DNA from: a bacterium
GTDB taxonomy: Bacteria; Fidelibacterota; Marinisomatia; Marinisomatales; UBA1611
Direction: 5' to 3'
Assembly (NCBI GenBank): GCA_018645565.1
Contig: JABGWJ010000134.1
Location: 1 to 42,316 of the forward strand
DNA length: 42,316 nt
Part shown: in pieces, positions 1 through 38,683 of the stretch
Layout of the letters: each line of letters opens with the position of its first letter
Numbering within the stretch: the first letter of the stretch is position 1
Translations under genes and position numbers: made by a program
The notes under the pieces: model-generated
Databases searched by the model: none
The model's input: the letters and a program-made list of their open reading frames with translations, nothing else
What the model was told of the DNA's origin: nothing

Positions 1-3000
1 AATAATAATGTTTTATGGGAAGAGTATACTGCTGGCTCAAATGGAAAATTTACGTTAGAGAACCGTATAATCTCTGGTAATTACAGAATTAAAGTATTTG
101 GCAACGGGCATGGTAATAATGGCGAATATGCTGGTAATGGTGGAATAAATATTACTATTAAAGATAAAGATGAGAGTCCAAAAATTAATTTATCAACAGA
201 TGGACTTAGGCCTATACTTGCTGCAAAGCGAGGAGTTCAAAGGGTTTTGGTAAGGTGGAAAGCACTTCCGCACGCAGAATCATACACTGTTTATAAAAAT
301 AATAAACCTGTAGCTGAGAAGATTAAAGAAAATAAATATATTGATAATGTTGCCCCTGGGAAATTTTATGAATACCATGTAAGAGCATGGGATTTGTATG
401 ATTTAGAGGGTCCTGAATCTAATAAAGAAAAGCAAAAATCATCATATCAGTTTCCAACTTTAAAGCCTAGCATTAAAATGGGAGCCCTAAAATCTGAAGG
501 TAGTGGGCGAATTGTTACGCTTGAATGGATTGCAATTCCAAACGTGGAAAAGTATGCTATTTACAGAGACAGTGTTTTAATATCAAAACAAGAAGAATTA
601 ACTTACATCGATTCTTTAGAATGGGGTAAAGAATACAAATTTAGTATTAATTCTATTGATCCAGATAATGATGAAGGTGCAATCTCTGAGGATGTTCTTG
701 TTGCTACTCACCCTGAAGTTTTAACGCCTGAATTGACAGCTTTAGGAAATGTTAATGCTGTAGATTTAAAATGGACTGATTTAAGTCCTGTTGCTACGTT
801 TTATAAAGTATTTCGCAACGGAAGTTATCTTGGAGATTTTGATAATCCATCTTTTTCTGATAACGTTGCTCCAGGAAAAGAATATTGTTATTCAATTTCC
901 GCAGCAGATCAATATGGTACTGAGGGTGAACAATCAACTACTGAATGTGGAAAGGGTCAGTTTGCTCATCCTTCAAATTTTTCCGCTGAAGTAATGCGTA
1001 ATACCGTTCATTTTAAATGGAAATCTGTTGAGGGGGTAAGTGGTTATCATCTTTACAGGAATGGTGAACTCATCCTTACAACTCAAGATTTCGCTTATTT
1101 AGATGAAAATTTAGAATATGATAAAGATTTTCAGTACGATATTGCTTCATATGATCAAGATGGAGACGATGGACCTATAGTGAGCGTAAAAGTACGCACC
1201 CACGAAGAAGTAACTAGTCCAATGATGAGCGGTGCTGCAGATTTAAAGCAAGTTACTTTGACTTGGAATCAACTACCATTGCGTATTGACCATGTATACA
1301 AAGTCTATAGGGATGGACTCCTTCTTGCTGACTTAACAGATACCTTTTATGTTGACATCGTAGATCCAGGGCAATATTACTGCTATAAAATAACGGCTAA
1401 AGACTCTTATGGTACAGAAGGTCCAGCTTCGAATGAAGAATGCTATAAAGTTCTAGTAAATTACCCAAAAGGCCTCACTCTAACAGGGGATGTTAAAAGA
1501 GTCTTGTTTAGATGGAAGGAGATGTTAGGAGCTGTTCAATATAATATTTATTCTCATGATAAAGATAACGGCGAAACAACTTTTATGACTAAAACAACAA
1601 GTAGTTATTACATTCATAAAGGGCTAGAGTTTGACACAGAGTATTGTTACAAAATGTCATCCTTAGATTCCGACGGAGATGAAGGTCCATTATCTCCAGT
1701 AATGTGTGGATGGGTCATGCCTCCTCCTCATTTAACTTTAATTGAAAAGTTTTTTGTAGAGCAATCTGATAACCAAATCTTAGATGGAAAAGAGGATGGT
1801 TTAATTGTCATTAAAATAGTAAACGATGGAAGAAGTCCAGCTAGAGAACTAAAACCATATTTAGAACCATTAAATTTTTCAAATACACCCTCCTTGATTA
1901 TTGATACTGTTGCGACTATTCCTGTCCTTGGAGTTGGTGATTCCATTACAATTAATTTCCCAATTTCAGCAAAATTAAAAATTGAATCTGGTGATAGAAA
2001 TTTTAACATAAGAATTAATGAATATGCAGGCATGGATTTAGATCCAGAACTCATATCTTTCCCCACATTGGCAGTTGTACCGCCGAATCTTGTAATAGCT
2101 GATTTCGCTATTGACAATGAATTTGGACATCACTACATACCAAAAAATGAAACAACTACACTCACTGTTAGATTTCAAAATTTATCAATTGGAAAAACGG
2201 ATACTGCTGTTTTAGCTTTTAGAAGAGGAGAGGGTTTTAAAAATGATTTAGATGAGATAAAGACTTTTGGCTTGGTCCCTGGTGGAGCATGGTTTGATTA
2301 TAGTTTTGAACTGTTAGCAAAAGAAGATCGGTTCACAATCTATTTTGATACATATGATTATTTTGATGTAAGAAAAACAATTCCTATTCATCTTGAAACT
2401 TTAAAACATTACAAGGGTAAAGACGATTTAAAAGCTGTCGATATTGCCATTAATGACTTTTTATCTCCTGGTCAAAAGTCAAAAGACCATCGCTTGTTGT
2501 TAGACCTTCCTGATGCTAATATGAATAGAGATATGATAGGTGTCGTGATTGGGAATAAAAATTTTTGGACTGAAAAAATTCCAGGCAATCAGTCGAGTGA
2601 AGAAGATGTCAAAATTGTAAGGCAGTATTACAATAAACTTTTTGGAATGAAAAATCACCAGATGGTGCCTTCTCAATTTTGGCTTTTTGAAAATGGAGTC
2701 ACGATCAATAACTTTAATGAAATTTTTAACCCAAATCTCGGATTTATTAGAAATAAGATTGAATCAGTAGTAGAATATTCAAACCTCGATACAATTGATT
2801 TAATGTTATACTATTCAGGAGAAGGAACTACTATCGCAGGTGAAAAATGTATTATTCCTTATGATGCTGATGAAAATAAAATTAACTCATTTTTTAAGAT
2901 AAAAGATTTATACTTAATGCTCAAAGAAATTAATAAAATTGATAATATCGGAGATATATTTGTTTTTATGGATGTTGATTTTAATAACTCGGGTTTTAAA

Positions 3001-3375
3001 CAAAACTTTAAAACTGCTGATCTAGATAATCCAAAAAAGAAAAAGAAAAAGAAAAAGAAAAAAGGAGAAGAGCCCAAACTGCCCTTTCCAATGGAGTTAA
3101 TACCCCCCCAGGGTATTACAACTTTTTACGCTGCAAATACTACAGAAAAATCTTATGATCATCCTGATGCAAAAAATGGTATATTTACTTACTATATGTT
3201 AAAAGGTCTTCGAGGTGATGCTGACAATGGTGACAAGGTAATTACCGTTGGTGAATTACATAATTATATACGTAAAAATGTTCTTGATACCACAAAAAAC
3301 CTCTACTCTAGCTTACCTCAAACACCTCAACTATTTACTGAGAATCCTGATAGAGTATTGTTGCGACTACCATAA
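1..3375 (+). CDS. Secreted FN3-repeat / paired beta-sandwich / caspase-fold (peptidase C14-like, dyad-less) protein, 5'-truncated by the window edge
   Basis: Frame 1 has no stop from base 1 to the TTG at 247 used by the ORF track, so the gene starts upstream of the window. It has at least six ~85-aa FN3-like repeats (W...Y-x-[VI]-[YF]-[RK]-[ND]-G ... Y-C-Y ... D-x-x-G-x-E-G). Two CARDB-like beta-sandwich modules follow (track aa ~495-725). The C-terminal domain has caspase-family hallmarks: IGVVIGNKNFW, LYYSGEG, FVFMDVDF, NGIFTYYMLKGLRGDADNGDKVITVGELHNYI, QTPQLF. Stop is TAA. Confidence 0.85.
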   Translation, partial: NNNVLWEEYTAGSNGKFTLENRIISGNYRIKVFGNGHGNNGEYAGNGGINITIKDKDESPKINLSTDGLRPILAAKRGVQRVLVRWKALPHAESYTVYKNNKPVAEKIKENKYIDNVAPGKFYEYHVRAWDLYDLEGPESNKEKQKSSYQFPTLKPSIKMGALKSEGSGRIVTLEWIAIPNVEKYAIYRDSVLISKQEELTYIDSLEWGKEYKFSINSIDPDNDEGAISEDVLVATHPEVLTPELTALGNVNAVDLKWTDLSPVATFYKVFRNGSYLGDFDNPSFSDNVAPGKEYCYSISAADQYGTEGEQSTTECGKGQFAHPSNFSAEVMRNTVHFKWKSVEGVSGYHLYRNGELILTTQDFAYLDENLEYDKDFQYDIASYDQDGDDGPIVSVKVRTHEEVTSPMMSGAADLKQVTLTWNQLPLRIDHVYKVYRDGLLLADLTDTFYVDIVDPGQYYCYKITAKDSYGTEGPASNEECYKVLVNYPKGLTLTGDVKRVLFRWKEMLGAVQYNIYSHDKDNGETTFMTKTTSSYYIHKGLEFDTEYCYKMSSLDSDGDEGPLSPVMCGWVMPPPHLTLIEKFFVEQSDNQILDGKEDGLIVIKIVNDGRSPARELKPYLEPLNFSNTPSLIIDTVATIPVLGVGDSITINFPISAKLKIESGDRNFNIRINEYAGMDLDPELISFPTLAVVPPNLVIADFAIDNEFGHHYIPKNETTTLTVRFQNLSIGKTDTAVLAFRRGEGFKNDLDEIKTFGLVPGGAWFDYSFELLAKEDRFTIYFDTYDYFDVRKTIPIHLETLKHYKGKDDLKAVDIAINDFLSPGQKSKDHRLLLDLPDANMNRDMIGVVIGNKNFWTEKIPGNQSSEEDVKIVRQYYNKLFGMKNHQMVPSQFWLFENGVTINNFNEIFNPNLGFIRNKIESVVEYSNLDTIDLMLYYSGEGTTIAGEKCIIPYDADENKINSFFKIKDLYLMLKEINKIDNIGDIFVFMDVDFNNSGFKQNFKTADLDNPKKKKKKKKKKGEEPKLPFPMELIPPQGITTFYAANTTEKSYDHPDAKNGIFTYYMLKGLRGDADNGDKVITVGELHNYIRKNVLDTTKNLYSSLPQTPQLFTENPDRVLLRLP
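3034..3063 (+). repeat. (AAAAAG)4-AAAAAA simple sequence repeat encoding a Lys10 tract
   Basis: Read directly: cca aaa aag aaa aag aaa aag aaa aag aaa aaa gga, in frame with the 1..3375 CDS (NPKKKKKKKKKKGEEP). Confidence 0.95.
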
Positions 3376-3433
3376 AGTATATTTATATATGGTATTAAAA
3401 TCATAAAGATTTTTTAGCTGGGTTTTGAATACA

Positions 3434-6382
3434 ATGAAATTTCTTCTATTTTTACTATTCATTATTAATATTGGTTTTGCAAAGACTGTTTCAATATCAG
3501 GCAGTATATTTAATAATGAAGCCAAACCATCTCGTAAAGCTGAAGTAGAACTTCTAAATATTTTTGATGAGGTTGTATATGTTGTGAAGACAAATCGAAA
3601 AGGAAGATTTGAGATGCTGGACGTTAACCCAGATTACTACTATCTCAATGTGAATCATCCGAAAGATGGTTCAGTAAGAATTAAAATTAACCCAAGAACA
3701 GAAAGAAATCGTGACCTTATTTTAAGATTATCTCTTCAAAAAGATAAATCTGATGTATTGGTTTACACTTATTCTAATGTAAAACCTATTTTGAAAGATC
3801 CAGTATTAAGGATTAAAGACTTGGTCTCAAATGGTGATGAAAAGTCAATCACTTTAAATTGGAAAAAGTTAAATCAGGCTGTTAAATATAAAATAATTCG
3901 AAATGGTAATGATCTTTTTGAAACATATGGAAATGCATTCATTGATTCTTCCTTATTACCTGGAGTTAAGTATTGCTATAATGTTATAGCAATAGGAAAA
4001 TATAATTTGAGAGGAGTAGAAAGCGAGTCTTCTTGCAATAGTTCTCTTACAATGGCGCCAAAAAATATTTTAGGCGCTGTTAATGAAAATAATATAACTT
4101 TAAAATGGGACAAGGTTAATGGCGCTCAAGAATATATTGTTAAACGAAATGGTCTCAATGTCGGTTTGTCTGATTTAGAGATTTTTAACGATAGTGATTT
4201 GGAATATTCTAGAAAATATTTTTATTCCATTACTTCTTTAAGCTCGATTGGAGTTGAGGGGCTTACATCAGCTCCATTTGAAATAACAACCAGAGCTTAT
4301 GTTGAGCCACCAGCATTATCATCTATTATTCAGCAAACTTCCATTAAGCTAATATGGAATGAGGTAGAATTAGCAGTGAGTTATAACTTATATAGAGATG
4401 GTGGATTAATCGGTAATATAATTGGTAATTCTTACGAAGATAATTGTTATCCAGGGGAAACACATTGTTATCAAATAACAAGCATTGATAAATACAATGT
4501 TGAGAGCGTATTGTCCGGTAAACATTGCTCAAAATTAAATTTAAAATCCCCAACTAGTTTAAACGTAATAGGTGGTATAAAATCTAATCGTTTGAGCTGG
4601 GCAGGAGTTCAAGGTGCATTTGAATATTTGATATTCAAGAGCATTGGGCAAGATTCAACTCTATATCTTAATAAAACAAAAAACACTTCTTTCTTGGATA
4701 ATGATTTAGGGTATAATGAAGATCATTGTTATGTTGTTCAAGGATATGACTCAGAAGGTGATAAGAGTGGTTTTTCAAACATCGTTTGTGGCACAACAAA
4801 TAATCCGCCACTATTAAAAATAAAGAATTTCAAGCTTATTGATGATTCTCAAAACAGTATTCTCGAATCTGAAGAAAATGGTAAGTTGAGGTTTGCTATA
4901 TTAAATGAGGGAGGTAGTCCCTCAAAAAACATAGTTGTAAAAATTGAAAACAATTCATTTGGGAACAGTTTTCTCCAATATGATTCTTTAAAATTGATTG
5001 AGGCAATAAATGTCGACGAAGCTAAATATATTGATTTTATTGTTAAGGCTGATTTAAAAGTAAAAACTGGCGATCTAAAATTTCAAATATTCGCTTTAGA
5101 TGAAAATGGTTTTAAAAATGATAAACCATTTGAATTTATCATTAATACAAAGGCGGTTGAGCAGCCAAATATAATTTTAGCAGACTATTCAATTGAAAAC
5201 AGTTTTGGTACTAATTACATTCCAAAAAATGAAATTGTTAATCTTACACTTAGAATTCAAAATGTGGGTTTAGGGCTTACAGAAAAAGTTGATTTTATGC
5301 TTATTGAGAACCATACTTTTTCAACAGAAGACTTCACAGGATTAATACAAATCAAAAAATTAAATCCTGGAGATTATCAAGACTTAGATATTGGTATAAA
5401 AAGTGAAAAAGACCAGTTTGCAATAAAGTTTAAAACAGTTGATTATCTAGATAATGAAACAGTTCATCAAGTAGATTTAGAGCTAATGAATCATTATAGA
5501 TCAAAGAAAAGTTTAATTAGTCAAGAAATTGGTGCTGTAAATAGCAATCCTTATCCAATAAAAGTTGGTGAGGTAGATGTAGAAAAAAATATTCCAATTG
5601 GAAAAAGAAATGTTAATAATATGGCTATTATACTATCGATTGATGACTACGAAGATACTGATTTAAACATAGCAAAATATTCTGGGCGAGATGGACAAAT
5701 TTTTAGGCTGTATATGCAAAATTTATTTGGAATGGACGATTATCAGCTCTATCCATCAAAAATATGGCAGATGGAGAACGGACCATCTAAGAGTGATTTT
5801 CGCAAAGTATTTGACCCTCATCAAGGTGTAATACGTAATAGAGTGATATCTTCAAGTAAATATTCAGACGTTAATTTTGTAGATATTAATGTTTTCTATT
5901 CTGGATTGGGAGTATGGTTGAATAATAAACCTTATATAATTCCGCAAGATGGTAAAAAAATTGATCCGCTTTCTTACGTAAGTATTGAAGAATTATTAAA
6001 TAGTTTATCATTGTTATCGGTTTTGAAAAACATTAGATCAATTACTGTTTACTTAGACGTTAAATATATCAACTATTTGGAGGCCTCGAAGAATTATCAA
6101 TATCCAGAATTATCAAAAAAAATATCTGTGTTATTATCTTCATCTCCAGGCGAAAATTCTCAAGAAAGTGACGATATGAAACATAGTATCTTTTCGTACT
6201 TTTTGTTTAAAGGTCTAAAAGGCGATGCAATGGGAGAAGATAACATTCTTGAATTAGGAGAACTCGCAGAATATTTATTTAGAAAAATACCGGATTATTC
6301 AGTAAACCTTAAGGAAGGTTTTTTACAAAACTCTGAATTTATCGGTTCAGATTTAAAAAGAGTCTTAATAGATTTAAGATAA
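3434..6382 (+). CDS. Secreted CarboxypepD_reg-like / FN3-repeat / paired beta-sandwich / caspase-fold (dyad-less) protein, paralog of the upstream gene
   Basis: ATG at 3434 gives a classic signal peptide (MKFLLFLLFIINIGFA-KT); the track's TTG at 3425 is an alternative start. The N-terminal region looks like a carboxypeptidase-regulatory domain (GSIFNNEAKPSRKAEVELLN...TNRKGRFEM). Four FN3-like repeats and two beta-sandwich modules are colinear with the upstream protein (PNIILADYSIENSFGTNYIPKNE vs PNLVIADFAIDNEFGHHYIPKNE). The C-terminal caspase-like domain shows MAIILSIDDY, VFYSGLG, VYLDVKY, HSIFSYFLFKGLKGDAMGEDNILELGELAEYL. Confidence 0.85.
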   Translation: MKFLLFLLFIINIGFAKTVSISGSIFNNEAKPSRKAEVELLNIFDEVVYVVKTNRKGRFEMLDVNPDYYYLNVNHPKDGSVRIKINPRTERNRDLILRLSLQKDKSDVLVYTYSNVKPILKDPVLRIKDLVSNGDEKSITLNWKKLNQAVKYKIIRNGNDLFETYGNAFIDSSLLPGVKYCYNVIAIGKYNLRGVESESSCNSSLTMAPKNILGAVNENNITLKWDKVNGAQEYIVKRNGLNVGLSDLEIFNDSDLEYSRKYFYSITSLSSIGVEGLTSAPFEITTRAYVEPPALSSIIQQTSIKLIWNEVELAVSYNLYRDGGLIGNIIGNSYEDNCYPGETHCYQITSIDKYNVESVLSGKHCSKLNLKSPTSLNVIGGIKSNRLSWAGVQGAFEYLIFKSIGQDSTLYLNKTKNTSFLDNDLGYNEDHCYVVQGYDSEGDKSGFSNIVCGTTNNPPLLKIKNFKLIDDSQNSILESEENGKLRFAILNEGGSPSKNIVVKIENNSFGNSFLQYDSLKLIEAINVDEAKYIDFIVKADLKVKTGDLKFQIFALDENGFKNDKPFEFIINTKAVEQPNIILADYSIENSFGTNYIPKNEIVNLTLRIQNVGLGLTEKVDFMLIENHTFSTEDFTGLIQIKKLNPGDYQDLDIGIKSEKDQFAIKFKTVDYLDNETVHQVDLELMNHYRSKKSLISQEIGAVNSNPYPIKVGEVDVEKNIPIGKRNVNNMAIILSIDDYEDTDLNIAKYSGRDGQIFRLYMQNLFGMDDYQLYPSKIWQMENGPSKSDFRKVFDPHQGVIRNRVISSSKYSDVNFVDINVFYSGLGVWLNNKPYIIPQDGKKIDPLSYVSIEELLNSLSLLSVLKNIRSITVYLDVKYINYLEASKNYQYPELSKKISVLLSSSPGENSQESDDMKHSIFSYFLFKGLKGDAMGEDNILELGELAEYLFRKIPDYSVNLKEGFLQNSEFIGSDLKRVLIDLR

Positions 6383-6445
6383 TATGATTTCACTACATAT
6401 AAGATATGTGGACAAGTATATTGTAAAATTTATATATTTATATAG

Positions 6446-6961
6446 ATGAATAGAGGATTTGCTATATTTCTCATTGTTTTAGTAGGCTGTGGCTTATTTG
6501 GTTGGAGAGAGTATGAACGCCAAATGAGAGAAAAAGTGTACAAGAATAGAATTAAATTAAAACTTGCTCAGCAACAACAAAAACAAGATCAATTAGAAGA
6601 ATTAGAAGGAATTGAAAAAGAGGAAAAAACAAAATTTAAAGTACAAATTCCTCATGATGGTAAACCCGAAACAAATACCTATCCAATGATTCTTGATGCC
6701 ACGAGTTCTTTTGACCCGGACCAAGGTGACCGAATAAGGTATGGATGGAAACAGTTGAGTGGTAATAAAATTCGATTAAGACCAAATTCTAGTTCTGGTA
6801 TTGTTTCATTTGAAGGCACGCCTGGAGAATACACTTTTGAACTGACTGTTTCCGATAATTATGGCATGGCTACAGTTATTACTAAAACAGTCAAGATTGA
6901 GAAAGAACCTAATCAAGCTCCAATAGTAGATTTAGAGATTAGGCAAGGAGTCACCGATTAA
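6446..6961 (+). CDS. Lipoprotein with Gln/Glu-rich coiled-coil linker and PKD-like (K319L-type) Ig domain
   Basis: Lipobox FLIVLVGC at the N-terminus. Charged linker KLAQQQQKQDQLEELEGIEKEEK. PKD-type pattern ILDATSSFDPDQGDRIRYGWKQLSGN...GEYTFELTVSDNYG...V.I. Confidence 0.7.
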   Translation: MNRGFAIFLIVLVGCGLFGWREYERQMREKVYKNRIKLKLAQQQQKQDQLEELEGIEKEEKTKFKVQIPHDGKPETNTYPMILDATSSFDPDQGDRIRYGWKQLSGNKIRLRPNSSSGIVSFEGTPGEYTFELTVSDNYGMATVITKTVKIEKEPNQAPIVDLEIRQGVTD

Positions 6962-7027
6962 TAGCTGCATAATTTTACCTCTTTGACTCTTCATTAAGCT
7001 CTATTACTCTATACTTAATTTATAATT

Positions 7028-7981
7028 TTGAAAAATAGTTACTATTCCCTTGGCATTGACATTGGAGGTACAAACACTGTATTTGGTGCTATATCACACG
7101 ATGGTCTTATATTAAAGAAAGATTCAATTTTGACAAATGCAGATCAAAATCCTGTCCATTTATTTGATAAAATTTTTGAAAGAAATAAGGTTTGGACAAA
7201 AGAACTTGATAATCGATACTTCTTTAAAAACATAGGCATTGGTGTTCCTAATGGTAACTATTTCACAGGCATGGTTAAAGATCCACCAAACTTAGGTCAG
7301 AAATGGCAAAATTTAGATTTAGTTAAGTTTGTAAAAAAATATTATGATATCCCTGTAAAAATTACAAATGACGCAAATGCTGCAGCCTTGGGAGAAAAAT
7401 CTTTTGGAGTTGCAAAAGAAATGAAAAATGCTGTAGTTGTTACTCTTGGTACTGGTTTAGGTAGCGGATTAATTATTGAAGGTAAGGTGTTTTACGGTCA
7501 TGATGGTTTTGCTGGGGAATTAGGTCATATTATCATTGACCCGAAAGGTCGTATTTGTGAGTGTGGAAGGCAAGGATGTTTGGAAATGTATGTTTCTGCG
7601 AAGGGGTTAAAACACACGATTGATGATTATTTATCTCGCTATCCAAACGATAAAACATTATTAAATCTGCAAGTAAATAATTTTGATGGAAAAAAGATGG
7701 ATGAAGCATTTGACGCTGGAGTAAATATAATTCAAGAAATCTATGAGTTTACGGGTAATATACTCGGCCAAGGTCTTGCTCAAGCTTCCACAATTCTTTC
7801 TCCTGAAGCGTTTATATTTTATGGAGGATTAAGTAATGCAAAACATCGAATACTTAAATTTGCAAAACAGTCAATGGATGCTAATCTATTAAGCTTTCAA
7901 AAAAATAATATAAAAATACTTTTATCTGAATTACCTGATGGTGAGGCAGGCATCATTGGTGCTTCTTGTTTACATCAATAA
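7028..7981 (+). CDS. ROK family sugar kinase (glucokinase-like)
   Basis: N-terminal ATP-binding LGIDIGGTN, DANAAALGE, and the ROK zinc motif GHIIIDPKGRICECGRQGCLE. TTG start; no in-frame ATG upstream. Confidence 0.85.
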   Translation: MKNSYYSLGIDIGGTNTVFGAISHDGLILKKDSILTNADQNPVHLFDKIFERNKVWTKELDNRYFFKNIGIGVPNGNYFTGMVKDPPNLGQKWQNLDLVKFVKKYYDIPVKITNDANAAALGEKSFGVAKEMKNAVVVTLGTGLGSGLIIEGKVFYGHDGFAGELGHIIIDPKGRICECGRQGCLEMYVSAKGLKHTIDDYLSRYPNDKTLLNLQVNNFDGKKMDEAFDAGVNIIQEIYEFTGNILGQGLAQASTILSPEAFIFYGGLSNAKHRILKFAKQSMDANLLSFQKNNIKILLSELPDGEAGIIGASCLHQ

Positions 7982-8001
7982 TTTTTTAGCTAAATAGTAT
8001 A

Positions 8002-10083
8002 TTACTGAATATCCCCATTAGGGTCTGTTTTTAAATGTAAGATTTTACTTATTCCATTTAAGCTAGTTTCCCCAGTTACTATATATCCGTTATCTTTCGT
8101 TTGATTAATACTTTTAAAAACGTCTACGCTTTCACTACCATACAGTTTTTCCCAAAGTTGATTACCCTGAGCATCATAACAAGCCAACCAGCCTTGATAA
8201 TTATTATTGTTTAGATTTTTTCCAACAACAATATAATTTCCCATGTGATTTTCAATCATATCTAATGCGAAATTATTTCCAGGTATTGATGTTAAAAAGT
8301 TTTGTTCACCATTAGTGTTTGTATTAATAATCCAAGAATTACCACTTTCTTGGTTATTATTATCAGACGAATATCCACAAAAAGTATAGCTTCCATCAGA
8401 TGAATGAATTAATCTTTTTGGATAATCATATATGTCCAAATCCCAAGTTTTTGTCCAAAGTGTATCACCGTTGCTAGATATATTGGTGTCGAATTGTGAT
8501 AATAAAATATTTGATGGAGCGTTAGAAGAGGATTGAGCTAATGATGCAAGAATTACGTAACCATTATCTACTTCAATTATAGATTTCCCATTTTCTATAG
8601 TTCTTTGTGATTGTGGGGCAATTGAAATGTTATACTGATTGTCAATATTACCTAATTGATTAATTTCTAAAATTAATATATCTGGGTGTTGTGCATGATA
8701 CTGCCCAACGATAATATATCCATTTTCAGATGATAATATTATGTCGTTAACCTTATCAAGACCATACGCAAGATTCTCTCCTTCTGAATCGTACCCAATG
8801 ATTGAATTCCATAGTTGAGTACCATCTTGCATCGTTTTTGTTATTCTTATATCAGTATCTTGATTATTGTTAACTATTGTTGATACAAAAACATATCCAT
8901 CATTATCCTGTGTCTCAATTATTTTTACAGGCGTCTCGTCTTGGCTATAATTGTAATAGGTAGATGAAGTTAATATTCCATACCTATTAACACTTTTTAA
9001 CACAATATCACTATTATCCTTTGCAATGATTCTATAATCTTCAGCAGTTGTTTGGATGCCATAGAAGCCGCCAATCGATTCAGCATCGGAACCATAACTT
9101 TGTAAAAATGTAAAGTATATTGGTGTAGCTGATTGCATATTGCTAAATACCTCATATTCCCAATCATCAATTATCGAAACCATAAAGTAATAGGTCGTCC
9201 CATAATCATTTTCAATAAACAAATAGCTTGTATCTTGGCTACTATACGAAGTGTAAATAGCTACTTTATCACTCATGCTAGCATCTAGAGATCTGTAAAG
9301 TTTATAGCTCTTAAAATCTGATGATTGATAGCCTGACCATTTTATTGTGAGCTCATTACCAAAAGAGTCGATCGAATCTAATGAAACTGATTGAGGTATA
9401 GGTCTTACAGTATTTGACATATAACCACCTTTTGTACTCTGATTAAGAGTATCATAAACAATTATTCTGAAATAATTACTTACATGTGGATCAAAGTCAT
9501 CGATAGAATAACTAGAAACAGATTTAATAAAGACACTATCAATAAGAGTATTATTTGAAGTATCATTAATTCCAGAATATAGTTCATATTTTAAGAAATC
9601 TGAATCAGGTGACTCATTCCAAAATACTTGCATTGATTCTTCATCATATATAATTGATGTGATATTGATGGGTAATGGTTTTGGGTCTAAAGAAGATATA
9701 AAAACACTGCTTTTTGAGGAATAATTAAATGAGTCTGAAACAGTTATGTAGAAATAGTTTAGAATCAAAGGATCTACATCTTCTAAAAAATAAGTTATGC
9801 TTTTTACATCGTTGGTGCTAAAGATGAGTGAATAGTCACTTTCATTTGCTACTGTTGAGTGATAAAGGTCATACTGATTAAAATCTGTAGCATTTGATTC
9901 TTCCCAAGAAATATCAAATCCAGCATTATTAAATACTACGGATTCAATCTCAATTGTATCTGGAATAGATAAAGTATTATCAATAGTATAGTCAACGGGA
10001 GGACTCTCAGTACAATTATCATCACAATCACAAATACTTACCGATAGTGAGACTGGCCCATCCGGAAGTTCGTTAGTATTCAA
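8002..10083 (-). CDS. Cell-surface protein: three FN3-like repeats plus C-terminal beta-propeller-like repeats (body of an interrupted lipoprotein gene)
   Basis: Three repeats carry W-x-[EG]-S-x-x-S-D-F-x-x-Y-x-L-Y. The C-terminal half has six units of the type [DN]-G-[YS]-[IV]-[IV/F]-x-G ... G-x-x-L-W (SBBP / PQQ-like propeller pattern). The ORF as tracked has no signal peptide; see the next feature. Confidence 0.75.
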   Translation of the reverse strand: MNTNELPDGPVSLSVSICDCDDNCTESPPVDYTIDNTLSIPDTIEIESVVFNNAGFDISWEESNATDFNQYDLYHSTVANESDYSLIFSTNDVKSITYFLEDVDPLILNYFYITVSDSFNYSSKSSVFISSLDPKPLPINITSIIYDEESMQVFWNESPDSDFLKYELYSGINDTSNNTLIDSVFIKSVSSYSIDDFDPHVSNYFRIIVYDTLNQSTKGGYMSNTVRPIPQSVSLDSIDSFGNELTIKWSGYQSSDFKSYKLYRSLDASMSDKVAIYTSYSSQDTSYLFIENDYGTTYYFMVSIIDDWEYEVFSNMQSATPIYFTFLQSYGSDAESIGGFYGIQTTAEDYRIIAKDNSDIVLKSVNRYGILTSSTYYNYSQDETPVKIIETQDNDGYVFVSTIVNNNQDTDIRITKTMQDGTQLWNSIIGYDSEGENLAYGLDKVNDIILSSENGYIIVGQYHAQHPDILILEINQLGNIDNQYNISIAPQSQRTIENGKSIIEVDNGYVILASLAQSSSNAPSNILLSQFDTNISSNGDTLWTKTWDLDIYDYPKRLIHSSDGSYTFCGYSSDNNNQESGNSWIINTNTNGEQNFLTSIPGNNFALDMIENHMGNYIVVGKNLNNNNYQGWLACYDAQGNQLWEKLYGSESVDVFKSINQTKDNGYIVTGETSLNGISKILHLKTDPNGDIQ

Positions 10084-10359
10084 GCTTATTTTAACTGGTT
10101 CATTGTTGATATTTCCTAATATCTCGCTTAAAGGTATATCTATTTTTAAATCATTAATATTTATTTCAACGCCGCATATACCATCAGGATCACTGGCATC
10201 AATACCTAATGTTACAATTTCATTACATGTTGCCCCATCCTGGGGGAATGTTATTACTCAGTAACCGGGTTTATCTTCAATACGCCATTTACAAGAATGC
10301 AAGAAAGTAAGAGCGAGCATTAATACACTTAGTTTTATTATTTGAATTTTTAGAATCAT
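10084..10359 (-). other. In-frame 5' extension of the 8002..10083 gene: lipoprotein signal peptide ORF (ATG 10359) ended by TGA at 10258..10260, then 58 further open in-frame codons
   Basis: Hand translation of the minus strand gives MILKIQIIKLSVLMLALTFLHSCKWRIEDKPGY-TGA-VITFPQDGATCNEIVTLGIDASDPDG...KISL(TTG 10083)NTNELPDG. The offsets 10359-10083=276 and 10260-10083=177 are both multiples of 3. The ATG lies 5 nt after the upstream OMP gene stop (10365..10367). Confidence 0.65.
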
Positions 10360-10364
10360 ATTAA

Positions 10365-11768
10365 TTATTTAAATGTTTTATTAACTTGGAAACCAAATCT
10401 TAATTTTTGATCATGATCGTCAATGCCAATATCCTCAGCAATTGCTGTTCTATGTAAATGATGTAAATTTGAAATAGATAAATCAATTTCTATTGAATTA
10501 ATAGAATACTGAATTCCCGTCTTAAAGCCAGTTTTAACTCCAGATGAAAGTTTTTTTTCTGTGATTTGGTTCGATAAATTACCATAAAACTGAATATTGT
10601 CTCTATAAAACCAATGCAACCCTGATTGGGCAAACCAAATATCCCACGGGTAGCCTTTAGGCTTTAATTTTGTATCAACTAAGTTTACATGAATAAAAGT
10701 AGGAGCTAATGAAAATATTATGTTTTGTTTTGATTTATATTCAAAAATAATTTGATTTAAAAAACTGAGTTTATCGTAGTCATCAAAAATTACAGGTTTG
10801 CCAGGATGCGTGCTGATTACAGATTCATAAATAATATTTATCGGATAGTTTAAATTTTTAATTAATCTATTTAAATAATTTGTTCTAAAAGAAAGGTCAG
10901 ATGTGTTTAAAAAATTGCTATTTGAAATTTCAATAGTTAAAAAGTCTTTTATACCATATCCTAGTGTAAGTCTTGATTGCTGACTAATTGTTGAACCAAA
11001 TCTATTTTCTAGTTGAAGCTTGACTACATTCTCAGGCAAAAGTAGTTTGGAATCTGTGTCAATCTGTCGAGCCTCTTTATTATCTTCAGCCTTCTTTTTT
11101 GTTCTTTTTTTAACCTTATATATAGCTGACATATTGAAAGTATTATTTTTATAATCAAGAGAATCTATTAATGTTTTTTTCACATCTGTCATTCCTAAAA
11201 AGTAAGAGGCTCTGAATCCAAAATTATTATTTAGCATATAGTCTGCGCCAATGTGGAAACCAACATCAATATCAAAATCTTTGGGCTTAAGCTTAAGTTC
11301 ATCTGACTGGCTACTATTATAGTCTGTAAACTTTAACTTTGTAAGTGAAATTCCTCCTAGGGAGCTACCAAATTGTAAACCCATAAAAGAATTAATCTTG
11401 CTAGTATGTGATATCGGGTAGTAGATATGAGCAGATAAATAATTAAAAACCTCATAGCCGTCGATATTAATTTTGTAATCTACACCACCAATATTTAGTA
11501 GTGTATTGTCCTCTAATTTAGAACCTCTTTGAAGGTAACTAGCCCCAGCAATAAATCGACTAATTGGATATTCAAAGCCAATGTTAAACCCACTTCGAGA
11601 GTTTATATTGATACGATCATTAATAGTGTTATCATTGTATTTAATTTGTGAAGAATTAACCCCACCAAAGATCGTCAAATTTCTCTGTGCGTAAAGAGAC
11701 GATACTAAAAGAATGGTTATAATATTTGATTTTACTAGATTGAAAAAAAAGCCCAAGATTTTTATCAT
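10365..11768 (-). CDS. Outer-membrane beta-barrel protein with two modules (OMP_b-brl-type porin-like module + DUF5777-like module) joined by a Lys-rich linker
   Basis: Signal peptide MIKILGFFFNLVKSNIITILLVSSLYA-QR. Module 1 (aa ~27-218) has alternating beta-strand patterning typical of small OM barrels and ends ...FNMSAIYKV. The linker is KKRTKKKAEDNKEARQ. Module 2 (aa ~245-467) has an ENRFG...RLTLGYGIKDFLTIEISNS start and a C-terminal LRFGFQVNKTF aromatic beta-signal. Confidence 0.75.
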   Translation of the reverse strand: MIKILGFFFNLVKSNIITILLVSSLYAQRNLTIFGGVNSSQIKYNDNTINDRININSRSGFNIGFEYPISRFIAGASYLQRGSKLEDNTLLNIGGVDYKINIDGYEVFNYLSAHIYYPISHTSKINSFMGLQFGSSLGGISLTKLKFTDYNSSQSDELKLKPKDFDIDVGFHIGADYMLNNNFGFRASYFLGMTDVKKTLIDSLDYKNNTFNMSAIYKVKKRTKKKAEDNKEARQIDTDSKLLLPENVVKLQLENRFGSTISQQSRLTLGYGIKDFLTIEISNSNFLNTSDLSFRTNYLNRLIKNLNYPINIIYESVISTHPGKPVIFDDYDKLSFLNQIIFEYKSKQNIIFSLAPTFIHVNLVDTKLKPKGYPWDIWFAQSGLHWFYRDNIQFYGNLSNQITEKKLSSGVKTGFKTGIQYSINSIEIDLSISNLHHLHRTAIAEDIGIDDHDQKLRFGFQVNKTFK

Positions 11769-11986: not shown

Positions 11987-13342
<1,356 letters not shown>

Positions 13343-13346
13343 ATTT

Positions 13347-16319
13347 CTAGATTCCAGAGGAATCTTCTTCGTCCATTATCTCTATCGTTTCTGGTTTAGG
13401 AATTATTACCTTTCCTGTTCCAGATAGTCCATCTATAATAGAGCGGAATGGCTCTTTAAATTGATACCAGCTAATATAATTTTTCTCTTCTTTAGGATGA
13501 TTTTTTTCTAGCCATTTTGAATTTAGAAAATCATTTTTATTTTTGTGGTCAATAGTTAAATAGCCAATATGAAGGCTAATAATATTTTGGAAAAAATGAC
13601 TACCAAATGATGGGTCAACTGGAAAATCTTGATGTCCTAGCTCTAAAATCATTTTTGTATTTGATATTTGTTGCCAATTTATTGGTACGCCCAACCATGG
13701 GTCTGAAGAACCCCACCTACCAGGGCCAACAAGAATATAAGGCCTGTTTTTTTCCATTTTATTATTAAAAAATTCTATTTCTTTAGCTATATCAAGCGAT
13801 TTTGAAGGATCGTACTTATCGGGAGATAAGTATAATAAATCTTTTATTTGGTTCGTCGAACCATTTCCTAATGTTATGTGACTAGATGCAAAAATATCTC
13901 TTTTTCTGAAGCTTTCTTCGTCAATAGCCTTATTTGTTGATATCAGCATGGGTTTTATTTGTAATAAGTAAAATTCAGAAGGTTCATTTTTTCGCATATT
14001 TACAGCAAACTCTATTTCAACTGGGCATCCGAGAGCTTGTTTCCCAAGTATAAGTAATTCATTTAGTATCTCACATAAAGGTATAATCTTCCAATCAAGA
14101 ATTGGAGAAAAATTAACTACCCTTGTTCCCTTATAAGATAAAGAATTTCTAAGAATGTTATCATCTGAAGTGATAACTCCTCCTAGCCAGTCTAATGACT
14201 TGTCTATTTCAGCTTTTGAAAGGTTAAGAAGCTTCAAGTCATTTTTTAATTTAAAATTGGCGCCATCCATTTCGAGTGAATAAAAACTTGATTGGGAATT
14301 TACTAAGGTTGATTTTATTGTTGAAAACTGAGGTTTGATGGCAGGGTATTTTGGAGAGATGCCAAGGCATTTTCCGCCGTCTACAATAGTTTTACCAAAA
14401 CCAAGCGCTAAATAGCATACTCCTTCATCTCTCTTCATATATGAAACGGGATAAAAATTTATACTCTTTAATACGCCACTAAATGTTGGGTAAAATCTCC
14501 CCCCAGCGTATTCTTGCCCAGCAATTTCCATTAAAATCACTGCCATTTTTTCTTCTTCTGTTCGATGTGCACTATTTGCAAAATATGATTTTGATTCAAT
14601 ATAAAATATTGATGCGAAAACTAATTTTATTGCATCAATTAATTGATTTATACGGTCTTTAAATATTGCTTGGTTATTTGGTAACATAAATGTTGAATAT
14701 GCCCCAGATAGAGGTTGGTATTGTGAGTCTTCTAACAGACTAGAGGACCTGACGGCTAGAGGATAATTACAATTTTTTAAAAATGCTTCTACCTTAAGTG
14801 TTAGCTCCATAGACAACCGGCTTTTCAAAAACATTGTCTCAACATCTTTATTATTATTAGCCTTTAAGGCATTATCCCAAAGTTTATTATCTTTCATAAA
14901 ACGATCAAATTCTTCTGTGCCGATTATTGCTGTCTTTGGAATTTTTACATTTATGTTTTTGAATTTATTATTTATGCCTGACTGAATTATCATATCTTTC
15001 GCAAATGCTAAACCGCGTGCCTTACCACCTAAAGACCCTCCGCACATTTTATAGAACCTAGAACTTTTACCATTTTCAGGAGAAAAGTCAGATACTTCAC
15101 CAAACTTATGTTGTTGCTTTAAATTATTGATTTCTTCAATAATCATGGCTCTTATATCTTCTTTGTTAGAAAATTTTTGAACATTAATCTTTCTAAGTTG
15201 TGTTGCTAAATCAAAATTGGATCTAGCAGCAACCCAATTTGAAAAGTGGTTGCTTTTACCATGTAAAATAATGGTTGCTATTGGCACTGTTTTTATGCCT
15301 TCAATTAGATCTTCAATGTTCGTTGCTTTTAGTAATCCATTACCTTGATTATCCTTAAAAATAAAATCACCAAATCCAAAATTGATTAGCATGAAATTTC
15401 TTAAATCATTTAAAAGTGTGTTAGACTCTTTATGTAAAAAATCAGTTCCTAACTCTTTCGCTAATTTTCTATTAGAATTATCTGTTGATTGTAGCATTAT
15501 CGGCATCGACGGATGCTTTTCTCTGATAGATTTTGCAAATCTAGCTCCAGCTTTTGAGTCTTTTTTTCCATTATTCAAAAATTTAACATCTGATATTATT
15601 CCAACAATATTATCGCCATATTTATTCGAAAATTTTTCAGCAGTTTCAAAATTTGGTGTAAGTAATACTTTGATTCTTCCTCTTAAGTGCATTGATTTAT
15701 AAGTAGAACTAAAAGTTTTTTTCATAAGGGTTTTTGTAAGAGAAACTATCTCCCGATAAATAAGTGGAAGCAGTATTGAATACATTCGAGGGGAGTCTTC
15801 AATAAGAATTATTGCGCGCACATTACCTTGAATAATATCTTTTTCAGCATTTTTCCTATCTTCAACATATTTAATGATTGCTGGAAAAACGGAAGCGTCA
15901 CCTGACCATATAAAGATTCTGTTAATTGAACTCGGTGAAATTCGTGGAGTGAATTGTTTTATTTCTGTTTCATCAAAAGCTAGTAAGATTACTGGCATAT
16001 TCGGATATTTCTTTTTTATAGACTTGCCAAGTGAAATCGGATCAGTATCTTCAATTCTTAGCATAACAATTACTAAATCAAAATTATTTTTTGATAAATC
16101 GTTCATTGCTGAAGCTGCCGTAGAGGATCTAGTCACTCTAGGAGCATAATTAAAATTCATCCCGATGTATTCTGTCATAATTTGTTCAGTCAATCCGCCA
16201 TCCTCTTCAAGTATAAAAGCATCATACGGGCTAGCGACTAATAGAATTTCATGAACTCTGTGTACCATCAGCTCATTAAAATTATCGCTATGACTAATAT
16301 TGAAAGAGTTTTCTTTCAA
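13347..16319 (-). CDS. Pseudo-receiver + receiver (REC) + PEP/pyruvate-binding (PPDK_N ATP-grasp) domain protein of unknown function
   Basis: REC-like 1 is aa ~23-125 (HEILLVASPYD..., DLVIVMLRI). REC 2 is aa ~168-300 (AIILIEDSP, GIISDVKF, PIMLQS, FLHKES). PPDK_N-type motifs are CGGSLGGKARGLAF and ...PVEIEFAVN...FYLLQIKPM. The conserved C-terminal module has GPGRWGSSDPWLGVPINW. TTG start at 16319; an alternative ATG is at 16268. Confidence 0.8.
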   Translation of the reverse strand: MKENSFNISHSDNFNELMVHRVHEILLVASPYDAFILEEDGGLTEQIMTEYIGMNFNYAPRVTRSSTAASAMNDLSKNNFDLVIVMLRIEDTDPISLGKSIKKKYPNMPVILLAFDETEIKQFTPRISPSSINRIFIWSGDASVFPAIIKYVEDRKNAEKDIIQGNVRAIILIEDSPRMYSILLPLIYREIVSLTKTLMKKTFSSTYKSMHLRGRIKVLLTPNFETAEKFSNKYGDNIVGIISDVKFLNNGKKDSKAGARFAKSIREKHPSMPIMLQSTDNSNRKLAKELGTDFLHKESNTLLNDLRNFMLINFGFGDFIFKDNQGNGLLKATNIEDLIEGIKTVPIATIILHGKSNHFSNWVAARSNFDLATQLRKINVQKFSNKEDIRAMIIEEINNLKQQHKFGEVSDFSPENGKSSRFYKMCGGSLGGKARGLAFAKDMIIQSGINNKFKNINVKIPKTAIIGTEEFDRFMKDNKLWDNALKANNNKDVETMFLKSRLSMELTLKVEAFLKNCNYPLAVRSSSLLEDSQYQPLSGAYSTFMLPNNQAIFKDRINQLIDAIKLVFASIFYIESKSYFANSAHRTEEEKMAVILMEIAGQEYAGGRFYPTFSGVLKSINFYPVSYMKRDEGVCYLALGFGKTIVDGGKCLGISPKYPAIKPQFSTIKSTLVNSQSSFYSLEMDGANFKLKNDLKLLNLSKAEIDKSLDWLGGVITSDDNILRNSLSYKGTRVVNFSPILDWKIIPLCEILNELLILGKQALGCPVEIEFAVNMRKNEPSEFYLLQIKPMLISTNKAIDEESFRKRDIFASSHITLGNGSTNQIKDLLYLSPDKYDPSKSLDIAKEIEFFNNKMEKNRPYILVGPGRWGSSDPWLGVPINWQQISNTKMILELGHQDFPVDPSFGSHFFQNIISLHIGYLTIDHKNKNDFLNSKWLEKNHPKEEKNYISWYQFKEPFRSIIDGLSGTGKVIIPKPETIEIMDEEDSSGI

Positions 16320-37459: not shown

Positions 37460-38683
37460 ATGGAAATAGATTTACATCGTCTACAAAAACAATCAGGGAT
37501 AATTGGTACTTCTGAAAAAATATTTGAAGTTTTAGGTATGATAGCTCAAGTTGCTCCAGTTGATATATCAGTTTTAGTCACCGGTGAGTCTGGTTGCGGA
37601 AAAGAAGTTGTCGCACGTGGAATTCATAAGCATAGTAAACGCTCTTTTACTCCTATGGTTACAGTCAATTGTGGTGCAATTCCTGAAGGAATAATTGAGA
37701 GTGAATTATTTGGCCATAAAAAAGGTTCTTTCACTGGTGCTTCTGAAGATAGAAAAGGATATTTTGAACAGGCAAATAAAGCTACTATCTTTTTAGATGA
37801 AATTGGAGAAGCTCCGCTTGAAACTCAAGTAAAGTTATTGCGAGTACTTGAAACTGGTGAATACATGAGAGTAGGCGAATCAAAGGTAAGGTATACAGAT
37901 GTTCGGGTGATTGCTGCTACTAATAAAAATTTATCAGAATTAGTTAAGAAAGAGTTGTTTCGACAGGACCTCTATTATCGTCTGAAAACTGTTAATATTC
38001 ATATTCCTTCTTTGAGAGATAGAGTTGAGGATATTAATCCATTTGTTGAAAGATTTGCACTAGAATTTACAAGGTCAAATGAGATTTTATATCGAGGGTT
38101 TATGCCTGATGCCATTCGTAAAATGAAACAATATGATTGGCCGGGTAATGTTCGTGAATTGAAAAATTTTGTAGAAAAAGTAATGGTTCTAGAGAAAGGC
38201 GAGAGAATTACAGAAGAGATGGTTAGTAGGGAATTAGATGATGTAATTGCTGAACCTATTCCTGATAATTTAAAACTACCAATTCCAGTAGATAAATCAA
38301 CTGAACAGGCAGAAATTGATATTATTTTACGCCAATTATTTTCATTAAAACAAGATACTGAAATGATTAGAGCTATTTTATCTGTCGATAAAGACAGTTC
38401 TTTATTTGGTGTAAGTCCAATATTACCAAAAGATAATCTAAAAATAATAAATCCAGTTAATGAGAAAAATTTAGAGGTTACTGAAGACGGTCAACCTTTA
38501 ATTCGTGATGATGCTATTGGCGAGATTAGAATGAAAGATCTCGAGAAAGAGGCTATCATTCGTACATTAAGATTTTTTAATAACAATAGAAGGAAAACAG
38601 CAAGGTCCTTAGGTGTTAGCGAAAGAACATTATACAGAAAAATTGAAGACTATAATCTTGAGCCCAAGATTAAACGGAATTAA
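37460..38683 (+). CDS. Sigma-54-dependent transcriptional activator (AAA+ bEBP with Fis-type HTH) lacking an N-terminal sensory domain
   Basis: The AAA+ core starts ~15 aa from the N-terminus (IIGTSEKIFEV; Walker A GESGCGKE; ESELFGHKKGSFTGA; Walker B FLDEIGE; RVIAATN). The C-terminal HTH is KTARSLGVSERTLYRKIEDY. AGGAGG lies upstream of the ATG. Confidence 0.85.
   Translation: MEIDLHRLQKQSGIIGTSEKIFEVLGMIAQVAPVDISVLVTGESGCGKEVVARGIHKHSKRSFTPMVTVNCGAIPEGIIESELFGHKKGSFTGASEDRKGYFEQANKATIFLDEIGEAPLETQVKLLRVLETGEYMRVGESKVRYTDVRVIAATNKNLSELVKKELFRQDLYYRLKTVNIHIPSLRDRVEDINPFVERFALEFTRSNEILYRGFMPDAIRKMKQYDWPGNVRELKNFVEKVMVLEKGERITEEMVSRELDDVIAEPIPDNLKLPIPVDKSTEQAEIDIILRQLFSLKQDTEMIRAILSVDKDSSLFGVSPILPKDNLKIINPVNEKNLEVTEDGQPLIRDDAIGEIRMKDLEKEAIIRTLRFFNNNRRKTARSLGVSERTLYRKIEDYNLEPKIKRN

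Follow-up and report, generated by a model that had tools for sequence, protein, structure and literature searches.

The window analysed here, a stretch of 42,316 nucleotides (contig JABGWJ010000134.1, assembly GCA_018645565.1) whose gene order is common to Marinimicrobia (SAR406) genomes, encodes a protein of 990 amino acids (aa) that is tentatively interpreted as a receiver-gated regulatory kinase derived from PPDK. By analogy with VadK (Rv1127c) of Mycobacterium tuberculosis, a truncated form of PPDK that undergoes autophosphorylation at His422 and also contacts enzymes of the methylcitrate cycle (PMC13400623), this protein would autophosphorylate on a histidine and act on the glutamate/2-oxoglutarate node. 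Its open reading frame (ORF; 13347-16319, minus strand, 990 aa plus the stop codon) comprises a pseudo-receiver (REC1), a receiver (REC2), a DUF5752-like domain, a PPDK_N ATP-grasp domain and a C-terminal module, and this architecture lies far beyond chance, because more than 3,496 clusters are homologous to the protein and the key residues are conserved across phyla. An earlier note, made from the sequence letters, had listed pseudo-REC, REC, PPDK_N and a conserved C-terminal module in this order, which holds. The motifs that it quoted were all recovered at their residues, namely ILLVASPYD at 25-33, DLVIVM at 81-86, GGSLGGKARGLAF at 427-439, EIEFAVN...YLLQIKPM at 768-791, GPGRWGSSDPWLGVPINW at 865-882 and DPSFGSHFFQN at 902-912. 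The features discussed below are:

15840-16265, minus strand: REC1, pseudo-receiver (about residues 19-160), acidic pair replaced (SPYD), Met86 codon at 16062-16064
15375-15827, minus strand: REC2, divergent intact receiver (about residues 165-315) with E174, D175, D244 (codon 15588-15590), S278 and K297
15036-15374, minus strand: DUF5752-like middle domain (about residues 316-428), small alpha+beta, motifs NFGFGDF and H353...SNW...R366
13932-15035, minus strand: PPDK_N-type ATP-grasp domain (residues 429-796; Pfam PF01326, E 1.3e-35) with K433, R524, E530, D531, E770 and Q787
13395-13931, minus strand: C-terminal module (residues 797-975), alpha/beta behind a flexible linker (793-800), motifs GPGRWG(S/T)xDPWLG and S-x-G-(S/T)-H908-F-F-x-N, candidate for both the phospho-His carrier and a catalytic domain
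13596-13598, minus strand: codon of His908, the sole histidine invariant across the family
13350-13394, minus strand: acidic C-terminal tail PETIEIMDEEDSSGI, conserved in Marinimicrobia only
12005-13342, plus strand: gdhA, hexameric-type glutamate dehydrogenase (GDH) of 445 aa (Pfam ELFV_dehydrog), convergent with the 990-aa gene

The ATP-grasp core and its C-terminal module

The ATP-grasp domain, proposed earlier as PEP/pyruvate-binding, retains the complete catalytic set, and K433, R524, E530, D531, E770 and Q787 are invariant in 134 of 134 full-length sequences from many phyla. When the full-length AlphaFold model was searched with Foldseek, the best matches of this domain were rifampin phosphotransferase (RPH; 5hv2, E 1.9e-12) and HpeI (9goj, E 4.4e-10). 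The domain looks catalytically competent. A Pfam scan of the whole 990-aa protein at E<=1 found neither PEP-utilizers (PF00391) nor the TIM barrel PEP-utilizers_C (PF02896), in agreement with the earlier claim that a swivel motif domain and a TIM barrel are absent. NCBIfam lacks a model of the protein; its highest scores, for PigC and phosphoenolpyruvate (PEP) synthase, reach about 40 bits against cut-offs of 880-1300 (PEP synthase: 40.6 bits against 883). Family members are labelled in databases as 'histidine kinase', 'phosphoenolpyruvate synthase', 'PEP/pyruvate-binding domain-containing protein' or 'CheY-like chemotaxis protein', and the label 'phosphoenolpyruvate synthase' is a misannotation. 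An assigned activity was found neither in the family libraries nor in the searchable literature, in which queries for this architecture, for DUF5752 and for GDH with a dikinase and a receiver returned nothing relevant.

The protein ends about 190 aa past PPDK_N, and most of this distance is taken up by the C-terminal module, whose conservation is borne out by an alignment of 243 modules in which only R868, G877, S904 and H908 are strictly invariant. In the 134 full-length proteins, H908 is the sole invariant histidine. Modelled alone, the module reaches a predicted local distance difference test score (pLDDT) of 84 and a predicted template modelling score of 0.83, and the linker 793-800 that separates it from the ATP-grasp domain has a pLDDT below 50. 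H908 is the first residue of a helix (908-915) in the model and is preceded by a strand and the glycine-containing loop S-x-G-(S/T). Pfam returned zero family matches for 16 modules at E<=10, and a PDB sequence search with the module gave no match; on sequence criteria, the module is a new domain family. The tail behind it contains M982, E984, G989 and I990, which are invariant in 68 sequences, and other phyla have different endings. Such tails are conserved within lineages, ...MDEEESSGI in Marinimicrobia and ...PPEGFM in Flavobacteriaceae (loci L040, L044, L061 and L063), and may be docking or autoinhibitory peptides.

A profile search with the module among 1.84 billion representatives (E<=1e-3) identified 1,962 clusters at 50% identity that carry it. 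In complete-length matches of about 1,000 aa it stands at the C-terminus; many matches are fragmentary, and in a few longer proteins the module is internal. A genome scan found the family in at least 587 species, with carriers in Marinimicrobia, Bacteroidales, Flavobacteriaceae, Holophagaceae, Eisenbacteria, Fermentibacteria, Elusimicrobiota, Krumholzibacteriia, Aminicenantes, Myxococcota and Actinomycetes. The module trails PPDK_N in every case, including two classes of paralogs. The first occurs in Bacteroidales, where the gene is frequently duplicated in tandem: a protein of 1,150-1,190 aa, extended at its N-terminus by an additional region, is followed by one of about 1,000 aa, often directly behind korA-korB (loci L029, L032, L034, L039, L043, L045, L047, L056, L060, L067 and L077, at about 5000-11600); both members retain the REC2 acceptor residues and the invariant histidine. 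The second class lacks receivers and has the same core of PPDK_N and His-bearing module, with the motifs GRWGSRGDIKLG and LSFGTHFFQD, and is represented by proteins of 791 aa (L035:515-2887, plus strand) and 909 aa (L064:9402-12128, minus strand), the latter with an additional C-terminal nucleotidyltransferase domain (NTP_transf_2).

Reading frame, receivers and middle domain

The start codon of the 990-aa frame is uncertain (16268-16319). Translation from the TTG at 16319 gives the full length and an alternative ATG encodes Met18 (16268); some homologs are annotated with 973 aa, whereas at least 90% of the sequences retain F14 and L17. The G+C content of the window is 32%. The nearest single-cell genome, AG-390-N21, carries the ortholog as two ORFs of 203 and 792 aa (L001:6195-8582), a split that probably reflects a frameshift or an assembly error.

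Pfam recognises Response_reg in REC1 at residues 43-117 with 31.1 bits against a cut-off of 30.2. When aligned to a solved receiver from PDB, Met86 falls on the phospho-Asp, and among the 134 full-length relatives the equivalent position is occupied by M, T, W or L and never by D. REC1 thus counts as a pseudo-receiver in the whole family, which supports the loss of the acidic pocket that had been noticed in the window protein.

For REC2, Pfam recognised no domain at residues 165-315. The key positions attributed to it are present in the motifs ILIEDSP (E174, D175), GIISDVKF (D244), IMLQS (S278) and FLHKES (K297), and among 121 sequences E174 is conserved in 118, D175 in 108, S278 in 112 (with Thr in four others) and K297 in 118. 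D244, on whose conservation in orthologs the earlier note had made its reading depend, is kept in 116. The residue set of a receiver (acidic pair, phospho-Asp, Ser/Thr and Lys) is thus complete in REC2 across phyla and is lacking in REC1. Both segments, 19-160 and 165-315, have the (beta-alpha)5 order of elements in the AlphaFold model (pLDDT 76), with a beta-hairpin inserted after beta3/D244 in REC2. The full-length model matches the tandem-receiver protein PleD (E ~4e-7) as well as NtrC1 and LuxO, and a REC2 profile searched against PDB gave nine matches that are all receivers, with weak E values of 0.1-0.9.

Between the receivers and the ATP-grasp domain, the window protein scores 20.7 bits for Pfam DUF5752 at residues 331-404, below the 23-bit cut-off. 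The cut-off is exceeded in the scanned homolog P0169 (25.5 bits), and PF19027 stands in the precomputed Pfam lists of many other homologs. Conservation of this middle domain is strong and includes H353 and R366; a PDB search with it returned only noise and no relative.

Genomic association with glutamate dehydrogenase

The 990-aa ORF and gdhA are separated by 4 bp, stop codons included. For the analysis of ortholog neighbourhoods, 79 loci were compared, comprising the window and 78 of 80 retrieved loci. Of these loci, 43 have a GDH gene within 8 kb, in 38 cases directly adjacent, and 11 contain kor-type genes (korA-korB, 2-oxoglutarate:ferredoxin oxidoreductase); the earlier note had missed both conserved adjacencies. 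The association with gdhA holds in Marinimicrobia, Bacteroidales, Flavobacteriaceae, Eisenbacteria, Elusimicrobiota, Krumholzibacteriia and Myxococcota. Its layout varies between lineages, an argument for selection and against inherited synteny: gdhA is convergent in Marinimicrobia and Eisenbacteria, lies upstream on the same strand in Elusimicrobiota, Krumholzibacteriia and Myxococcota, and takes the form gdh-X-gdh in Flavobacteriaceae. At other loci, the neighbours encode a cyclic nucleotide monophosphate-binding lyase of the aspartase/fumarase type or a GltD-like fusion with domains resembling the small subunit of glutamate synthase. Carbon and nitrogen metabolism meet at GDH and 2-oxoglutarate, and since the gene adjoins a GDH gene in many phyla, the family probably controls this junction. 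For Bacteroidota, Marinimicrobia and many uncultured phyla, little is known to date about post-translational control of GDH, and the family represents a testable candidate regulator of the GDH node.

A further lead, a trans-acting gene reported downstream of gdhA in Bacteroides thetaiotaomicron (Baggio and Morrison, 1996), was dropped. The retrieved Bacteroidales homologs all derive from environmental metagenome-assembled genomes, with no cultured Bacteroides among them. No histidine kinase was found in the window, where the earlier note had seen no cognate one, and a motif scan detected histidine-kinase-like neighbours (cluster 20) in only three of the 79 loci, one member being a hybrid PAS histidine kinase confirmed by Pfam.

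In four seawater metatranscriptomes, contigs cover the 990-aa gene at a word depth of about 2-18 and gdhA and pgk at about 40-120; contig depth is a crude measure and carry-over of DNA is possible. The low transcript depth fits a regulator of low abundance. A promoter and terminator scan around the 990-aa gene showed no excess over shuffled sequences. On the plus strand, a terminator-like hairpin is located at 13561-13578, inside the convergent 990-aa gene, and a metatranscriptome contig (12623-13634, depth 68) enters the 3' coding region of this gene by about 290 nt in antisense orientation. Beyond gdhA, the depth falls from 68 to 21 to 8 (13342-13650), and the end of the gdhA transcript appears to lie within the convergent gene.

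Elsewhere in the window, a sigma-54 activator (Sigma54_activat and HTH_8; 37460-38683, plus strand) lacks a receiver or other N-terminal sensor domain, and a 693-aa ORF with zero Pfam matches (8002-10083, minus strand) is flanked by genes for a ROK kinase and an outer-membrane beta-barrel. Two adjoining giant ORFs of 1,042 and 985 aa (247-6382, plus strand) group with each other by BLASTP, and their place beside the same block of genes is conserved in further Marinimicrobia (cluster 17); Pfam was run on the 985-aa ORF and gave only weak sub-threshold matches (CarboxypepD_reg, fn3 and C2-like).

Proposed function and comparison with known systems

In the favoured mechanism, the ATP-grasp domain would bind Mg-ATP and phosphorylate H908 on the flexibly tethered C-terminal module. 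At the glutamate/2-oxoglutarate node, the phosphorylated histidine would then act on a partner, most likely GDH itself, which may be reached by phosphotransfer or by phospho-dependent binding, comparable to VadK with the methylcitrate-cycle enzymes. An unlinked histidine kinase would phosphorylate D244 of REC2 and turn the enzyme on or off, and REC1 could, like the second receiver of PleD, mediate dimerisation or act as an adaptor. A cryptic phospho-His carrier is favoured because the C-terminal module invariably stands after PPDK_N, holds the sole invariant histidine and sits behind a flexible linker. Moreover, since phosphate is to our knowledge passed to a histidine in all PPDK_N enzymes characterised so far, PEP synthase (PEPS), glucan water dikinase and PigC included, a relay through H908 is considered more likely than none. 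The module may be analogous in function to a phospho-His carrier or very distantly homologous to one.

Several results weigh against this reading. Alignment of the 243 modules with 121 PF00391 domains (120 natural domains gathered by a consensus query and the domain of Escherichia coli PpsA) using hhalign gave a probability of 2%, and a profile-profile Smith-Waterman comparison of the module with PF00391 yielded z = -0.4 against block shuffles. A structure search of PDB and BFVD with the module, as the earlier note had suggested, started from a confident model and returned no significant neighbour (best E 0.02, template modelling (TM) score ~0.35). In addition, the invariant polar residues of the module (R868, D873, E893, S904 and N912) exceed the needs of a simple carrier, and the link to GDH is genomic only, the two genes being convergent and not co-transcribed in Marinimicrobia. 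Because the profile tests against PF00391 are negative, the H908 relay is unproven.

With a single module sequence, as with all 243, hhalign found nothing past a 14-column match of the form 'v.vDG.tG'. A collinear layout of the module on the PpsA swivel domain, made by eye (LG.G hairpin, ILV..DPW, GSH versus TCH, and DG.tG), is not above chance and was discounted as evidence because both hhalign and the shuffle-controlled profile score were null. Among 350,542 chains, PPDK (1ggo) ranks 11 for the model of the module alone, which speaks for a carrier, at a non-significant E of 0.17 and a TM score of 0.35. Several weak matches (LD-carboxypeptidase, PPDK, PA-domain peptidases and GroEL) belong to the SCOP 'swivelling beta/beta/alpha' fold and are suggestive only.

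A response-regulator-gated ATP-grasp enzyme without a His relay, which would phosphorylate or ligate its substrate directly, was the reading of the earlier note and is considered unlikely. Here, the C-terminal module would be a new substrate-binding or catalytic domain and H908 a general base instead of a phospho-acceptor, in line with the absence of a PF00391 signal by every sequence method, the lack of a significant structural neighbour and the many invariant polar residues, as in an active site. Against this model speak the flexible linker ahead of the module, the location of the sole invariant histidine in a module that always accompanies PPDK_N, and the reports on PPDK, RPH, HpeHI and VadK, in all of which phosphate passes through a histidine (PMC4844700, PMC12167813, PMC13400623). 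The motif DPSFGSHFFQN, quoted in the same note that excluded a phospho-His relay, contains H908. That overall reading is supported in part: the architecture, the conservation of REC2, the absence of Pfam swivel and TIM barrel domains, the lack of a histidine kinase in the window and that of an assigned activity stand, and the step to an enzyme without a relay does not.

Next in probability, and doubtful as well, is a small-molecule dikinase of the RPH/HpeHI type, in which the phosphoryl group of H908 would be passed to a metabolite bound by the DUF5752-like domain or the C-terminal module. Synthesis or use of this metabolite would take place at the glutamate/2-oxoglutarate node, and the receiver would only tune the flux. 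RPH and HpeI are indeed the closest structural relatives of the ATP-grasp domain, the middle domain with H353 and R366 is strongly conserved, and the neighbours (gdhA, korAB and the aspartase/fumarase-type lyase) are metabolic; however, Pfam, Foldseek and PDB searches detected no domain resembling the substrate-binding domain of RPH or HpeH, two fused receivers typify regulators and not pathway enzymes, and the transcript depth is low compared to the neighbouring metabolic genes.

It is improbable that the protein is a self-charging response regulator, in which the ATP-grasp/His core would take the place of a histidine kinase and H908 would phosphorylate D244 within the protein or a dimer. The result would be a complete phosphorelay that responds to the levels of ATP and metabolites and is independent of a kinase partner. 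However, many response regulators are orphans, no PPDK-type histidine is known to transfer phosphate to an Asp, and the receiver-less paralogs keep the ATP-grasp/His core, which therefore has a function of its own. These points stand against the constant fusion of an intact REC2 to this core in the classes of about 1,000 and 1,150 aa, the near absence of histidine kinases from the loci and the window, and the description of VadK by its authors as functioning as a histidine kinase (PMC13400623). If self-charging were true, the ATP and 2-oxoglutarate/glutamate status of the cell would be coupled directly to the control of GDH, and a second, evolutionarily independent His-to-Asp phosphorelay would exist that needs no histidine kinase. 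Finally, a catalytically dead scaffold that binds only nucleotides or partners is hardly credible: REC1 does set a precedent as a pseudo-domain, but the ATP-grasp catalytic residues and the REC2 acceptor set are invariant or nearly so across phyla.

For the regulatory kinase favoured here, phosphorylation of H908 would define the C-terminal module as a new phospho-histidine domain family. PPDK-derived regulatory kinases, so far known only from VadK of mycobacteria, would then constitute a widespread signalling principle that can be gated by two-component input. The analysis also corrects a common misannotation of the family.

Among known systems, VadK resembles the 990-aa protein in combining an ATP-grasp domain with a His-bearing domain in the absence of the PEP/pyruvate TIM barrel, and, as proposed here by analogy, in regulating a pathway through contact with its enzymes instead of synthesising PEP. 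VadK differs in having a canonical PEP-utilizers His domain and no receivers, whereas the 990-aa protein carries a module without detectable similarity to PF00391 and two receivers and a DUF5752-like domain fused upstream. The pathways differ as well, GDH/2-oxoglutarate according to genomic association in one case and the methylcitrate cycle in the other, and the comparison is one of analogy, with no orthology claimed.

PPDK and PEPS share PPDK_N with the same catalytic set of Lys, Arg, Glu and Gln, as well as the succession of a nucleotide-binding domain and a small mobile domain. The His domain directly follows the nucleotide-binding domain in PPDK and does not in RPH or HpeI. The Foldseek alignments of the full model are consistent with this order and count in favour of the kinase reading, extending over 587-655 columns with PPDK and only about 390-425 with RPH and HpeI. 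In contrast to PPDK and PEPS, the 990-aa protein has neither the PEP-utilizers_C TIM barrel nor the GGxTSHAA motif. RPH and HpeHI (PMC4844700, PMC12167813) provide the best structural matches to the ATP-grasp domain, and HpeI illustrates that the His domain with which PPDK_N works can also be arranged differently (PMC12167813). Unlike the 990-aa protein, these catabolic or resistance enzymes have recognisable swivel and small-molecule-binding domains and no receivers. PleD likewise contains two successive receiver folds, of which only one keeps the phospho-Asp; here, the order is reversed, with the pseudo-receiver first, and the output is an ATP-grasp kinase and not a GGDEF cyclase. By its domain content, the 990-aa protein is not a strict member of the PPDK/PEPS/RPH group, because neither a swivel domain nor a third, substrate-binding domain (TIM barrel or RIF-binding) is found, and most plausibly it works like these enzymes in the first half-reaction.

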